Shown here: positions 2,721 to 7,948 of the stretch, in pieces
How the letters are laid out: each line of letters starts with the position of its first letter
Numbering within the stretch: the first letter of the stretch is position 1
Translations under genes and position numbers: made by a program
DNA from: a virus
Virus record (IMG/VR): IMGVR_UViG_3300044811_000050
Reading direction: 5' to 3' (one strand)
Length of the DNA stretch: 64,000 nt
The notes under the pieces: model-generated
Told to the model about the DNA's origin: nothing
Databases searched by the model: none
What the model saw: the letters and a program-made list of their open reading frames with translations, nothing else

Positions 2721-4569
2721 ATCATGTGAGAAATGCGGCGGCCGGATGTCGCCGCGCTGGCCCCGGGCCCGGCAGCCCGACGGTCAGATGTGGTGCCCGA
2801 GCTGCGTGCAGGGCCAGTCCCACGTGCAGACCACGGCGGCGGTCAGCGACCGGCACCCCGACATCAACTGGAAGGTGGCGCGCTTCGGCGTCGCCAACAC
2901 CTCGCTGGGTCGCGCCAGCTTCCAGCTGCCCTTCATCACCGGGGCCACCCAGGACGAGCAGGAGCAGCGGCTGGCCCGACCGGAAGGCTGGGATCACTCC
3001 GGGACCGGATTCCAGCCGGTGCGCTTCGCCATCGAAGGCGCCCGCAGCTACGCCCACAAGCTGCACCTGCCCGACCCGCACGAGCACGACTACAGCCAGA
3101 TCCACCAGAACGCCGACACGGTGCGCACCGTCGGGCGGCTCTACGACAAGCTGCCCGAGCACGACCCGCACGCGATCCCGCACTTCGAGGTCATGCGCGA
3201 CGAGGTGGGTCACCAGTTCCACCACCTGACCCACACCATGGGTGTGCACGTGGAGACCACCGACCACGACCCGTACGCCAACGTGCACGAGATGACCAAG
3301 GACGTGGCCGACAACAAGCGGCTGAAGGTGCTGGGCACTCACGTCACCGGCGCCCACCCGTTCTTCTCCAACCACGAGAACGACCAGTTCCGCGCGGTGC
3401 ACGACTTCTTCGGCCATGCCGCCACCGGGCGGGACTTCTCCCGCCACGGCGAGCAGGCCGCGTTCCTGGCGCACTCCCGGATGTTCTCCGACCGCGCCCG
3501 GCCGGCGATGGCCAGCGAGACCAAGGGGCAGAACACCAGCCTGATCCTCAATGGTCACTTCAGCCCGCAGAAGATCGCGCTGCTGCCCAAGCAGCATTGG
3601 GCGGTCCGCCGTAACGCCGCCGGCTGGTCCGGTGAGGACGTGATCCGGCACGAGCTGGGCCGGCAGAAGGTGCACCAGGTCTACATCGACGGGCACCACG
3701 CCGCCGAGCTGTGCCCCGAGCACCTGCGGATGAAACGGAAGATCAGCGACTTCGCCACCGGCTTGGCCCGGCAGGTGGGCTTGTCCACCCGTTACCCGAC
3801 TATCCAGGCCAGCCCGCCCACCGAGGGCCGCTGCACCGAATGCACCCGGGTATCCGGTACCCAGTCGTTGGAGCATCCGTGGAACCCCCGCGAGCAGCCG
3901 GGCGCGATCCCCACCCAGGAGGAGAAAGTGCCGAATGGGCGCAGCCTGCTGCACCGCCAGCACCGGCCGTACGTGGACGAGTACGCCGAGGTGAAGCCGC
4001 AGATCCAGAGCTACAACCGGCGGATCGCGCTGGCCCACAAGATGGGCAAGCTCGACCGGATGAACGGGCCCGGCCCGATCCGCATCCAGGCACACGACTC
4101 CGGCGACGGCGAGACGATCTTCCATTGCCCGTTCTGCGGCTCCGGTCAGGTCATCGCCCGCAGCGACGGCACGGTGGAGTGCGAGTTCTGCTCGACCGCG
4201 TTCACCGTGCAGGTGCAACCGCAGATGCCGGCGTTCCCGCAGACCATCGACGGGGTGCCCGTGGACGTGCCTGGGATGCCCGCAGGCGGGGCGAACGCCA
4301 ACGTGCCACCCGGAACCGCCCCCGGGGCCGATCCGGGCGCTGAGGGCGATCTGGAGGCTAACAGCGGGCCCCCTGGCGCCGATGATCAGGACGACGGCTC
4401 CGATGGCGGGGACGACGACAAACCGGCGTTCCTGAAGGGCTCCACGCTGCGCACCGCCCAGGGTCAGGAGCTGCCCCGCGAGCACTACATGCAGCACCTG
4501 GCGCTCGCTCACGCCCGCGACCGTGACGCGGTGCTCGCCCAGGTCCGCGTAGAGAACGGGAGAGGCTGA
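2710..4569 (+). CDS. Multidomain head polyprotein: Zn ribbon + HDxxGH putative metalloenzyme domain + C-terminal Zn ribbon
   Basis: ATG 2710 after GGGAGGG; FRAVHDFFGH...GEQAA...ETKGQN motif; C-terminal HCPFCGSG...CEFC. Confidence 0.8.
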   Translation: MPIRSCEKCGGRMSPRWPRARQPDGQMWCPSCVQGQSHVQTTAAVSDRHPDINWKVARFGVANTSLGRASFQLPFITGATQDEQEQRLARPEGWDHSGTGFQPVRFAIEGARSYAHKLHLPDPHEHDYSQIHQNADTVRTVGRLYDKLPEHDPHAIPHFEVMRDEVGHQFHHLTHTMGVHVETTDHDPYANVHEMTKDVADNKRLKVLGTHVTGAHPFFSNHENDQFRAVHDFFGHAATGRDFSRHGEQAAFLAHSRMFSDRARPAMASETKGQNTSLILNGHFSPQKIALLPKQHWAVRRNAAGWSGEDVIRHELGRQKVHQVYIDGHHAAELCPEHLRMKRKISDFATGLARQVGLSTRYPTIQASPPTEGRCTECTRVSGTQSLEHPWNPREQPGAIPTQEEKVPNGRSLLHRQHRPYVDEYAEVKPQIQSYNRRIALAHKMGKLDRMNGPGPIRIQAHDSGDGETIFHCPFCGSGQVIARSDGTVECEFCSTAFTVQVQPQMPAFPQTIDGVPVDVPGMPAGGANANVPPGTAPGADPGAEGDLEANSGPPGADDQDDGSDGGDDDKPAFLKGSTLRTAQGQELPREHYMQHLALAHARDRDAVLAQVRVENGRG

Positions 4570-4799
4570 TGACCACCACGGTGTACGCCCTGATCGAGTT
4601 CAAGCACACCGACGGGAACACCTACGAGCCAGGTGACCCGGCGGAGCTGCCCGACGAGACCGACGCGGACAAGGCCGAGCTGGCCAAGCTGCTCGACTAC
4701 GGCATGGTCACCAAGAGCGCTTCGCGGGGCCAGAAGGTCGCCGAGAAGGCCGCCGAGCCGGGCGACTCCCCGCAGCGCACCTCCCGGCGGAGGAGTTGA
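4569..4799 (+). CDS. Small hypothetical protein
   Basis: 76 aa, TGATG-coupled to upstream gene. Confidence 0.8.
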   Translation: MTTTVYALIEFKHTDGNTYEPGDPAELPDETDADKAELAKLLDYGMVTKSASRGQKVAEKAAEPGDSPQRTSRRRS

Positions 4800-5104
4800 C
4801 CGTGCCGTTCCCCCGCGCCATCGCCCTGGCGCTGCGGGACATCGACCCGAGTACGTTGCCCGGTCGGCCAGCCACCGACGAGCCGTGTGAGGGCGCGAAG
4901 TTCCACAGCCCCACCCCGCTGATCCTGCACGACGTCCACCTGTCCAACGGCCGGGTGGTGAGCCTGTGCGGCTGCTGCCGGGACAACGCCGACGTGCTCG
5001 CCGCCCTGCTGGCCCAGTTCGCCCAGGACCTGGAGTGGCCGGTTCGCCGAGAGTTCGGTAATAAGTTAAGGGCGCTTTTGATTCCTAGGGAAGAGGATGA
5101 ATGA
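4796..5104 (+). CDS. Cys/His hypothetical protein (3' end recoded, see findings; start may be GTG 4802)
   Basis: GGAGGAG RBS; C..H..H..CGCC motif. Confidence 0.8.
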   Translation: MTVPFPRAIALALRDIDPSTLPGRPATDEPCEGAKFHSPTPLILHDVHLSNGRVVSLCGCCRDNADVLAALLAQFAQDLEWPVRREFGNKLRALLIPREEDE

Positions 5105-5700
5105 CGCTGGCGTTGGCCGAGCCTGAAACGGAGTGCTCGGCGGAGAGATGCGGGAAGGTGCAACCCAACGGGATGTGCCGCTCGCACTATCAGCGCGCCT
5201 GGCGTAAGGCGAACGCGGAGCACCTCAAGGCCAAGAAGGCTGAGTGGTATCAGCAGAACCGCGAGACAGTCATTCAGCGCAGTCGGGTCAGGCAAGATGC
5301 TGACCCAGAACGTGCGGCGGCTTACCGCAGAAGGTGGGCGGTTGAGAACGCCGAGCACAAGGCCCAGCTGGACCGGGCGTGGGTAGTGGCGAACCGTGAC
5401 CGCTACCTGCTGCATATGAAGAGCGGTCGGGCTCGGCGGAAGGCACGTATGGCCGCAGCGCCAGTCTGTGACTTCACCTCGTCTGACTGGCTGGAGCTAC
5501 TAGAGGAGCACGAGCACCGCTGCTACTACTGCGGCTCAGATGAGGATCTTCAACAGGAACACAAGATCCCCATCGTCCGAGGTGGATCCCACACGAAGTC
5601 GAACATTGTTCCGGGTTGCAAACGGTGCAACCTGCGCAAGGGAAGACTCACGGACGGCGAATTCGGCAACAAGCTCCGCGCCCTGTTGATCCCGAGGGAG
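5051..5700 (+). repeat. Protein-level direct repeat EFGNKLRALLIPRE (5051-5092 and 5659-5700) flanking the HNH gene
   Basis: 14 identical residues; 12 of 42 nt differ, all synonymous. Confidence 0.95.
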
Positions 5701-5712
5701 ACCGATGGCTGA
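5101..5712 (+). CDS. Free-standing HNH homing endonuclease
   Basis: CYYCG...EHKIPIVRGGSHTKSNIVPGCKRCNLRK HNH motif; N-terminal C-x4-C...C-x2-H finger; lower GC3. Confidence 0.93.
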   Translation: MTLALAEPETECSAERCGKVQPNGMCRSHYQRAWRKANAEHLKAKKAEWYQQNRETVIQRSRVRQDADPERAAAYRRRWAVENAEHKAQLDRAWVVANRDRYLLHMKSGRARRKARMAAAPVCDFTSSDWLELLEEHEHRCYYCGSDEDLQQEHKIPIVRGGSHTKSNIVPGCKRCNLRKGRLTDGEFGNKLRALLIPRETDG

Positions 5713-7948
5713 GGACCAGCCGAAGATCACCGATCGGCGTGGGGCCCGGCGAGGCGGCCCGAGTGGGTTGATCGTGCCCACCTCGGCCCAGGTGACGGCC
5801 GCGACCCGGGGGCGACTGCCCGCCGAGGGTGTCACCATGCCGGCGCCGGGCTATGCCCCGCGCCGTGACGGGCTCGGTCCCGACGGCGTGATCGAGGAGA
5901 TGCGCCGCAACCGGGCGGTCAACCGGCGCACCGGGATCCGGCGGACCGGCACGATGGTCGGCGGCGGTGGCGCGGCCGGATTCGGCGGCGGGGCGGACGT
6001 CACCTTCGCCACCGGGCGCCCGCGCGACCCGATGTTTTACTGGCGACAGAACAACATTCCTTACGACGTCACCAAGGACGACGAACTCAAGAAGATCCGG
6101 GCATTCTGTCGGCTGCTCTATTTGACCCACCCCATTGTTTCCGCCTGCATCGACATCTTCTCCAAGTTCCCCTTGCAGGGCATGACGTTCGAATGCAAGG
6201 ACGACCAGCTCACCGATTTCTACGGCGAGTTGTTCTTCGATGAGCTGAATTACGAGGAATACCTGCTCGACATCGGCCGGGAATATTGGTTGACCGGCGA
6301 GGCGTGGCCGCTGGGGTCTTGGAACGCCCAGCTCGGCGTGTGGGACGGCGACGAGCTGCTCCAGCCCGACGACGTGGAGGTGGAGCGCTCCCCGTTCCTG
6401 AAGGACCCCCGGTTCCTGATCCGGCTGCCGGCGACCCTGCGCAAGGTGCTCCAGGAGCGGAGCCCGCGCTGGGAGTACGACGCGCTGATGAAGGCCTACC
6501 CGGAGCTGGCCGCCTACGCGGGCGAGAACGCGCTGATGCCGGTCAGCAACATTTTGCTCAAGCAGATGAAGTTCAAGGGCGACACCTTCCACAAGCGCGG
6601 CCTGCCGATCCTGATGCGCGGCTTCCGGGCCATCGTGCAGGAGGAGATGCTCAACGCCGCGATGGATGCCGTGGCCGACCGGCTCTACACCCCGCTGGTG
6701 CTGGCCAAGCTCGGCGCGTCCGCCTCCGATCTGGGCACCGAGGCGCCGTGGATCCCCACCAAGGGGGACCTGGAGGACTTCGAGGAGGCCCTGGACGCCG
6801 CGCTGGCCGGCGACTTCCGGGTACTGACCCACCACTTCGCCATCGACATGGAGCCGGTGTTCGGCCGGGAGAACATGCCCGACATGAGCCCGGACTTCGA
6901 GCGCATCGAGGACCGGATCCTCCAGGTGTTCGGGCTGAGCCGGACCATCCTGCAAGGCGCCGACCGGGGCGAGACCTACGCCGCCGACGCGCTCAACCGC
7001 GACGTGGTCACCCAGCTGCTGACCCACTACCAGCGGGTGCTGGTCTCCTTCTATAAGGACCGGGCCATGATCGTGGCCGAGGCCCAGGAGCACTTCGACT
7101 ACGACGTCCGCAACGGCCAGCGCTACGTCAAGATGGAAGAGATCCTGGAGGTCGACGAGGAGACCGGGGAAGAGCGCATCGTCGAGCAGCCCAAGCTGCT
7201 CATCCCGGACCTGAAGTTCGACACCATGACCCTCCAGGACGAGTCCACCGAGCGGCAGTTCATCGAAGCGCTGCGCGAGTCCGGCATGCCGCTGTCCAAC
7301 AAGCGCCGGCTGCTGGGCACCGGGATCGACTTCGACGAAGAGGTGGAGGCGCTCTCCCAGGAGCAGGTGCAGCTGGCCGTCGCCGAGCAGGAGAACCGCC
7401 GGGAGACCTTCAAGGGGTTGCGCGATCAGGGCCTGCCGATCCCCGACGATCTGGCCGCCGACTTCCAGCCCAAGGCCGTCCAAGCCACCCAGACCCTCGG
7501 GGCCGGCGGTCAGGACGAGGTCATTCCCGCGCTCGGCCAGCAACCGCAGGACCTGCCCGCGTTGGCCCCCACCCAAGAGGATCTGGCGGCCGGCGAGGAG
7601 GACGGCTCGGCCGACCCGGGCGCGGCCATGGGCCAGCTGGTGCCGATGCCCATGGCGATGGCGCCGCCGAGTCGCCCGCCGGAGTCCGACGAACAGAGGA
7701 GCGGCATGCCCAAGCCGGCCAAGCTCGCCAAGCACGCAGTCAAGTTGGGGATCCGGGAGGCCACCCGCAAGCACTACGAGGCCCCGGACAACTCGATCGA
7801 GGACACCCAGAACGACGACGGCAGCGTGACGCGGCGGCCGGAGAACTACCGGCCCACCGGCCGTTTCGGCCCGCCGCAACACGTCGGGATGCGCCGACAT
7901 GTGGAGATCGACGAGCGCGCCAAGGCGCCCCGAGAGGAATCAGCCTGA
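5705..7948 (+). CDS. Portal protein
   Basis: 747 aa; HPIVSACIDIFSKFPL and GLPILMRGF motifs, acidic C-terminal tail; synteny with Bxz1-like head genes. Confidence 0.85.
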   Translation: MAEDQPKITDRRGARRGGPSGLIVPTSAQVTAATRGRLPAEGVTMPAPGYAPRRDGLGPDGVIEEMRRNRAVNRRTGIRRTGTMVGGGGAAGFGGGADVTFATGRPRDPMFYWRQNNIPYDVTKDDELKKIRAFCRLLYLTHPIVSACIDIFSKFPLQGMTFECKDDQLTDFYGELFFDELNYEEYLLDIGREYWLTGEAWPLGSWNAQLGVWDGDELLQPDDVEVERSPFLKDPRFLIRLPATLRKVLQERSPRWEYDALMKAYPELAAYAGENALMPVSNILLKQMKFKGDTFHKRGLPILMRGFRAIVQEEMLNAAMDAVADRLYTPLVLAKLGASASDLGTEAPWIPTKGDLEDFEEALDAALAGDFRVLTHHFAIDMEPVFGRENMPDMSPDFERIEDRILQVFGLSRTILQGADRGETYAADALNRDVVTQLLTHYQRVLVSFYKDRAMIVAEAQEHFDYDVRNGQRYVKMEEILEVDEETGEERIVEQPKLLIPDLKFDTMTLQDESTERQFIEALRESGMPLSNKRRLLGTGIDFDEEVEALSQEQVQLAVAEQENRRETFKGLRDQGLPIPDDLAADFQPKAVQATQTLGAGGQDEVIPALGQQPQDLPALAPTQEDLAAGEEDGSADPGAAMGQLVPMPMAMAPPSRPPESDEQRSGMPKPAKLAKHAVKLGIREATRKHYEAPDNSIEDTQNDDGSVTRRPENYRPTGRFGPPQHVGMRRHVEIDERAKAPREESA

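Follow-up and report, generated by a model that had tools for sequence, protein, structure and literature searches.

A probable mobile HNH endonuclease cassette that replaces the end of its host gene in a phage genome

Homing elements are usually said to spare the gene that they invade, either by being spliced out, as introns and inteins are, or through an intergenic position. A further arrangement is found in the mORF gene hybrids of fungal mitochondria, which have been described for atp6 of Allomyces macrogynus, for atp6, atp9, cox2 and nad3 of Glomus sp., for atp9 of Rhizopus and for cox2 of Mortierella (PMC3630166); the same layout is reported in a further source (PMC6279837). In these hybrids the inserted C-terminus has 64-81% nucleotide identity and ~100% protein identity, and it is the native copy that matches endonuclease-free relatives (PMC3630166). 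The WHO elements of the yeasts Torulaspora and Lachancea consist of an endonuclease gene together with an alternative 3′ part of FBA1, and the old gene end is left behind; allele-specific cleavage and target selection for resistance have both been shown by experiment for these elements (PMC7282813; bioRxiv 10.64898/2026.08.13.744650). In phages, the described systems are free-standing HEGs, e.g., seg/mob of T4 and the HEGs of ICP1 (PMC10448857), and fractured genes that are split by a HEG (PMC2677866). A description of the duplicated-end layout in a phage was not found in the literature searched, most subscription journals lying outside it.

The locus considered here is part of a 64,000-nt stretch of viral DNA (IMG/VR record IMGVR_UViG_3300044811_000050), the whole of which is called the window. 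Three genes follow one another on the + strand: host gene X (4796..5104), which encodes a small Cys/His protein of 102 aa; an HNH endonuclease ORF of 203 aa (5101..5712); and the portal protein gene (5705..7948). The arrangement in the window is that of one contig from a single assembly. We consider it probable that the locus carries a mobile, free-standing HNH_5 endonuclease cassette of a terminus-replacing kind. By alignment with relatives, a cassette of 608 nt, comprising a recoded tail and the HNH_5 gene, lies inside X, and the original tail of X has been displaced and joined in frame to the HNH. That the enzyme cleaves, confers immunity and homes is what we infer from the sequence.

The parallels with the mORF hybrids are several. 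In both, the host gene is interrupted in its 3′ part by an endonuclease ORF, with an in-phase alternative end before it and a displaced native end after it; in both, the displaced copy matches element-free relatives, and the inserted copy is diverged in nucleotides and conserved in protein. The sequence-only reading of this locus had already drawn the fungal comparison, and it holds with regard to the inserted in-phase C-terminus and the displaced native one (PMC3630166). There are also differences. The mORF enzymes are of the LAGLIDADG or GIY-YIG type, whereas the phage enzyme is an HNH nuclease in a dsDNA phage genome. Unlike the mORF hybrids, the phage cassette replaces 14-17 codons only, its displaced tail is translated as part of the endonuclease, forming its C-terminus, and retains the stop/start overlap leading into the portal gene, and the duplicated piece includes the translation start of the next gene, which is used by the endonuclease.

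Like the WHO elements, the phage cassette replaces a host 3′ end with no splicing involved. The WHO elements are nuclear and eukaryotic, with an HO-related LAGLIDADG/zinc-finger enzyme, whereas the phage enzyme belongs to HNH_5; furthermore, WHO elements replace half of the gene, their relics cluster and the old end is unfused, whereas the old end in the phage is fused to the endonuclease. The phage cassette works like the mORF and WHO elements and is a member of neither by descent, its enzyme being HNH_5. With the free-standing phage HEGs it shares sporadic occurrence among close relatives, the HNH class and a location within conserved essential genes or next to them; however, those HEGs sit between genes or split a gene, either into two pieces that are translated separately or into split inteins, whereas in the window the gene is kept whole by a duplicated, respelled end. 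From the fungal and yeast systems it differs in the HNH enzyme, the phage genome, the tiny size of what is replaced and the capture, in translated form, of an old end that bears the start of the next gene.

The sequence-only reading rested on a peptide, EFGNKLRALLIPRE, that is encoded twice, and this is confirmed: one copy lies at 5051-5092 in the frame of ORF 4796-5104, and the other at 5659-5700 in the frame of ORF 5101-5712. Over these 14 codons the copies are identical in all amino acids (100%) and in 71% of nucleotides; the 12 mismatches among 42 nt are all synonymous and touch 10 of the 14 codons. Single-base changes in this stretch are silent in 24% of cases, and when 12 changes were drawn at random 200,000 times, no set was silent throughout. 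We count the silence of all 12 differences as a probable sign of selection on the upstream copy. The extent originally given for the repeat (42 nt, 14 codons) is sound as far as it goes, but the repeat runs farther, to the stop codons, pairing 5051-5104 with 5659-5712 over 54 nt, of which 37 are identical. The final three sense codons are unlike between the copies, so that the product of ORF 4796-5104 ends ...WPVRR-EFGNKLRALLIPRE-EDE and that of ORF 5101-5712 ends ...GRLTDG-EFGNKLRALLIPRE-TDG. Identity is never uninterrupted for more than 5 nt. A DNA repeat finder run on the window did not pick up the 5051/5659 repeat, because the identity is 71% and the runs do not exceed 5 nt. When neighbouring ORF pairs were scanned across the whole window for common C-terminal peptides, the pair of X and the HNH was the only one found.

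Which of the two copies is the original can be judged from relatives that lack the HNH. In ~27 related loci (L001-L018, L021-L029) X abuts the portal gene with no HNH between, and the filled state is seen in the window and in one other locus, L019. The closest relative, L001, has an X that is 92% identical in protein and 93% in nucleotides; its portal gene comes directly after X, with the overlap ATGGCTGA. The 8-nt stop/start junction of the window is also present in L001-L011, L016 and L027, and the overlap is widely conserved in the other HNH-less loci. Aligned with L001, the window differs by one gap-free insertion of 608 nt. Of the 54 nt of the empty site in L001, the downstream copy (5659..5712, +) matches 45; the upstream copy (5051..5104, +), which is AT-rich, synonymously recoded and ends in EDE, matches 35; moreover, positions 5677-5732 are nearly identical to L001. 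Per 42 nt, the downstream and upstream copies match L002 at 29 and 22 positions, L003 at 34 and 27, L008 at 35 and 27, and L009 at 26 and 21, the downstream copy being the nearer one to every HNH-less relative compared (these four and L001).

The end that is consensus for the family, ...ETDG, is the tail of the HNH, and the present X ends ...EEDE. It had been predicted that phages without the HNH would carry the GC-rich version directly adjoining the portal gene; this is what is found in L001-L018 and L021-L029, none of which has the AT-rich version. Because the AT-rich version is absent from HNH-less relatives and the family end is found in the HNH, the downstream copy is the displaced original end, as had been proposed. 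In 60-nt blocks, identity to L001 is 0.80-0.98 on either side of the cassette, and there is no clear co-conversion tract. X in the window is now a hybrid, native to ~5061 and continuing as replacement tail to its stop, and the HNH ORF is native to ~5667 and continues as captured X tail.

The endonuclease itself is readily classified. Within residues 141-192, Pfam finds PF14279 HNH_5 (1.5e-11, 44.5 bits against a cut-off of 27.5) and PF01844 (1.3e-9, 38.5 bits against a cut-off of 21.4), and the PHROG matches are to HNH and endonuclease VII families. The core residues are in place, namely the zinc residues C141, C144, C173 and C176 together with H154, N168 and N177, and they are invariant in the alignment of relatives save for C173, which is nearly invariant. 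The HNH motif is intact, with the catalytic His and Asn residues of a beta-beta-alpha-metal core and two CxxC zinc pairs. The family is large (34,915 hits), and the nearest relatives of the window HNH are <50% identical to it. No second HNH paralogue was found within the window.

The family also helps to place the right junction of the cassette. Nearly all of 150 HNH relatives stop a few residues past the conserved ...CxxCNxxK...TxxEF, and alignments of relatives to the window HNH mostly end at residues 180-192. A word-based search with the HNH tail region returned the query itself only. Glutamate at the EF position is encoded by GAG in every listed relative with Glu and by GAA in the downstream copy, while GAG TTC GGT is common to the upstream copy and L001. 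The downstream copy thus probably begins with two or three codons of HNH-native sequence, GAA TTC GGC for EF(G). From the family end ...TxxEF and the use of GAA versus GAG, the right junction can be placed within a GAR-TTC-GG microhomology.

The translational layout of the locus is conserved in spite of the insertion. The ancestral X/portal junction is represented at 5694..5712 (+) and comprises an SD-like GAGGGAG, the portal ATG at 5705 and the stop TGA at 5710-5712 in the overlap ATGGCTGA. The upstream copy holds a vestigial portal ATG at 5097-5099, the repeat offset of 608 nt pairing 5097 with 5705. The ATG of the HNH (5101-5103) lies 4 nt beyond the vestigial one and overlaps the stop of X (5102-5104). 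The start region of the HNH (5087..5103, +) is thus within the duplicated junction and has an SD-like purine-rich tract, which is created by the altered last codons of X. Since the HNH frame lacks a stop of its own, it continues along the displaced tail as far as the ancestral stop that overlaps the portal ATG, and the serial overlap of X, the HNH and the portal gene is maintained.

The locus had been read as an insertion into a gene without splicing, and we agree: X ends at 5104 and no intron model matches 4400-6400. An intein or a group I/II intron is rejected on the grounds that X stops at 5104, that the HNH is in another frame and that an Rfam search of 4400-6400 gave no family at E up to 1. 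A target-site duplication of the transposon type is rejected as well, since its copies would begin identical and 54 nt far exceeds the overhangs of HNH cuts. In a scan of 4500-6000 for promoters and terminators there was no promoter-like site, and the single terminator-like site was no better than shuffled controls.

The two copies differ in composition as well. Third-position GC (GC3) is 0.44 in the upstream copy, 0.74 in the HNH body and ~0.92 in the surrounding genes, in agreement with the earlier description of the upstream copy as AT-rich; by this measure, the cassette is foreign-looking. Among 3562 fourteen-codon windows tested, none is more atypical in its codons than the upstream copy, which contains TTA, a codon absent from seven large ORFs of the window. 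The description of the downstream copy as genome-typical is correct in part only, as its codons are not uniformly so: GAA, TTG and AGG are rare in this genome. In a genome with a GC3 of 0.92, respelling forces many A/T-ending codons; the AT bias of the upstream copy exceeds that. An RNA-structure reason for the AT-rich respelling is unsupported by folding, the z-scores being near 0 at the two junctions of the window and -1.8 at the L001 junction.

The leading alternative has the same architecture, but with a tail that came in with the HNH by horizontal transfer, the donor being a distant and AT-richer phage, as has been proposed for atp6 of Allomyces. The extreme codon usage of the upstream copy suggests import, as do the low GC3 of both cassette parts against the genome value and the TTA codon that is unused elsewhere. 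In addition, the two tails of L019 differ in protein and resemble different relatives, and the fungal precedent has been read as horizontal transfer (PMC3630166). Nevertheless, we regard import as unlikely. The copies agree at 14 of 14 amino acids, among them K91 and R99, which are rare residues present in both, whereas in distant relatives the tail of X departs from this sequence at several positions. Both copies also have the codons AAG, TTG and AGG, which L001 lacks; since these codons are lineage-specific, the replacement tail has the look of a paralogue that belongs to this lineage, and not of a tail from a distant donor. Furthermore, an AT-rich donor was not found among the X homologues and related contigs searched. 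As the probable origin of the tail we therefore favour a duplication, either in this lineage or in a close relative, with directional silent divergence afterwards, because of the full amino acid identity, including the rare R99, and the shared AAG, TTG and AGG.

Related HNH genes show that the layout is not confined to the window. P0036, which is among the three closest of 1.84 billion representatives to the window HNH, is encoded in L019 between the X homologue and the portal start, with the overlap ATGCCTGA. L019 is a distant relative, with an X only ~47% identical and a contig of roughly 50% GC. From VQR.FGNQIR onward, the C-terminus of P0036 repeats the X tail, in this case with divergence in protein too, and each of the two tails in L019 resembles different relatives. 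P0046 occurs in L032 and L033 (the latter from a second sample and another run), between homologues of the genes for a 627-aa and a 76-aa protein. The phage in question is a related one whose X/portal site is empty, the HNH being located two genes upstream. There the tail is again duplicated: the end of the upstream gene, ...VRAERQ, returns as ...VRAERQN at the end of the HNH, with four of six codons respelled, and the HNH-borne copy is nearer to the homologous sequence of the window and bears the ancestral TGATG junction. The corresponding position in the window, the junction of the 627-aa and 76-aa genes at 4565..4573 (+), is an empty insertion point that is filled in L032 (584-1186) and L033. 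This junction appears to be a second homing site in the phage group.

Each of the three HNHs is in frame with a displaced tail and terminates at the ancestral stop/start overlap. The layout was thus seen in 3 of ~7 contexts examined, and in frame in 3 of 3. Close HNH relatives in L030, L034 and L035 are ordinary intergenic or overlapping genes with no tail duplication, and terminus replacement is therefore not fixed in the clade. As a separate observation, the close HNH relative in L034 (1501-3067) lies beside a tail-terminator gene and a gene with a NUMOD4 domain (endonuclease-type), which suggests that mobile nuclease genes are clustered in a tail module there.

These cases bear on a second alternative, namely that the HNH was inserted by a single illegitimate event at an untargeted site, with the duplication as a by-product, silent drift under purifying selection and no homing. 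It is consistent with the lack of a visible co-conversion tract relative to L001, and microhomology at the junction fits illegitimate recombination; in addition, no second copy of the exact cassette was found in the 5.8 billion protein clusters searched. Yet a related HNH occupies the same site in L019, in spite of the low identity of X. The silent divergence (10 of 14 codons) is far above that of the flanks (93% nucleotide identity to L001) and runs against the codon bias of the genome, and the recurrent in-frame fusion (3/3) is a further argument against chance. A one-off insertion is to our minds quite improbable.

A third possibility is that the HNH is a functional accessory of packaging, inherited vertically and comparable to HK97 gp74, the tail being common to X and the HNH for a single binding partner. 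The HNH does lie immediately upstream of the portal gene, and the protein sequence of the tail is fully conserved between the two ORFs. However, it is absent from ~27 relatives of the same gene order, including the 92%-identical L001, its relatives are found at unrelated loci, the captured tail in L019 has drifted in protein and the HNH family natively ends just past EF. A packaging-associated HNH would be expected to be conserved beside packaging genes, which fails in those ~27 relatives, and this explanation is rejected as very improbable. The least credible explanation, an assembly chimera or artefact, might be raised because the arrangement of the window is known from one contig, but both junctions are precise and in frame with overlapping stop/start codons, and the same design recurs in assemblies independent of this one (L019, and also L032 and L033, which come from two runs).

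For the terminus-replacing cassette that we prefer, the following mechanism is proposed. In the ancestral state X ended ...RREFGNKLRALLIPRETDG, with its stop overlapping the portal start; in the present state the 608-nt cassette lies within the last 14-17 codons of X. At its left end the cassette repeats the X tail together with the X/portal junction, with 10 of the 14 codons spelled differently, so that X is still full-length, and the HNH starts from the copied ribosome-binding region. The enzyme is predicted to cut HNH-less alleles in or near the conserved stretch coding for RREFGN, after which repair from an HNH-bearing genome during co-infection would copy the cassette. The respelling may have two roles: (i) self-immunity of the resident allele, at the junction that retains the native left half-site; and (ii) a block to deletion between the direct repeats, given that runs of identity are ≤5 nt. 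The in-frame capture would preserve termination-reinitiation coupling for the portal gene. Finally, the right junction could have arisen at the GAR-TTC-GG microhomology, where the ...TxxEF end of the HNH meets ...REFGN of X.

A broader proposal, to which we give somewhat less than an even chance, is that large actinophages host an HNH_5 lineage that invades operons of overlapping genes by a 'terminus swap'. Such a swap would supply a respelled gene end and a copied start for the next gene and would maintain coupling through the endonuclease, the respelling being selected for self-immunity and against repeat deletion; phages would then be the home of a third, splicing-free category of homing. 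If the terminus swap is true, that category would stand beside introns and inteins, and so far it has been demonstrated only in yeast. The locus and its matching empty sites represent a third solution in phage, in which a gene end is replaced by a respelled copy. They also show how such an element can be accommodated among the tightly overlapping genes of a late operon while translational coupling to an essential structural gene is preserved. There are practical implications as well. Short duplicated gene ends around HNH genes could be used to find homing sites and predict targets, chimeric endonuclease C-termini are to be expected in annotation, and the pair formed by empty L001 and the filled window constitutes a directly testable prediction of an enzyme and its target.

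With regard to gene X, 34 homologues were found in metagenomic phage contigs, with C31, H37, C58, C61, F87, G88, N89, R92 and L94 invariant and a native C-terminus of the form ...RREFGNxLRALLIPKETDG. X matched no family in Pfam or PHROG, and no match to it turned up when 50,697 deposited phage genomes were searched with DNA and protein; the exact product (P0001) was absent from the contig index searched. An AlphaFold2 model of X (pLDDT 90.6) has helical tail residues 89-95 and a disordered stretch over the last few residues, where the two substitutions in X (T to E and G to E) fall. A fold search with this confident model gave no significant match to solved structures. The invariance of F87, G88, N89, R92 and L94, together with the confidently modelled tail helix, is counted in favour of the tail being important to the protein. 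In roughly 40 contigs X is always the gene just before the portal gene, with its stop usually overlapping the portal start. The motif ...LCGxCRxN in X bears a faint likeness to the second half of the HNH motif.

The portal gene is assigned by its match to phrog_2833 (E 1.4e-149) and by blastn to annotated actinophage portal genes. In the 50,697 deposited phage genomes, blastn of this gene finds ~70% identical stretches in Mycobacterium, Gordonia and Rhodococcus phages; a close relative of the window was sought in the same set with DNA and protein and none was found. In L004, a 117-kb relative, the portal frame is broken into several short ORFs at 3293-5470, which may be an assembly problem or a decayed gene. 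Several relatives (L032, at 2158-2904, and L010, L011, L013, L022 and L026) carry an in-frame insertion of ~750 nt in the portal gene just before Cys135 (6107-6109 in the window). The L032 insertion has Cys as its first residue, ...SSN at its end ahead of the Cys and a LAGLIDADG-like ...GGIYDGEG motif; these features are hallmarks of an intein with a homing endonuclease, although Pfam gives no hit, and the window would be the intein-free allele. The site of this insertion is a highly conserved and locally low-GC stretch (6000-6250, GC 0.52-0.58).
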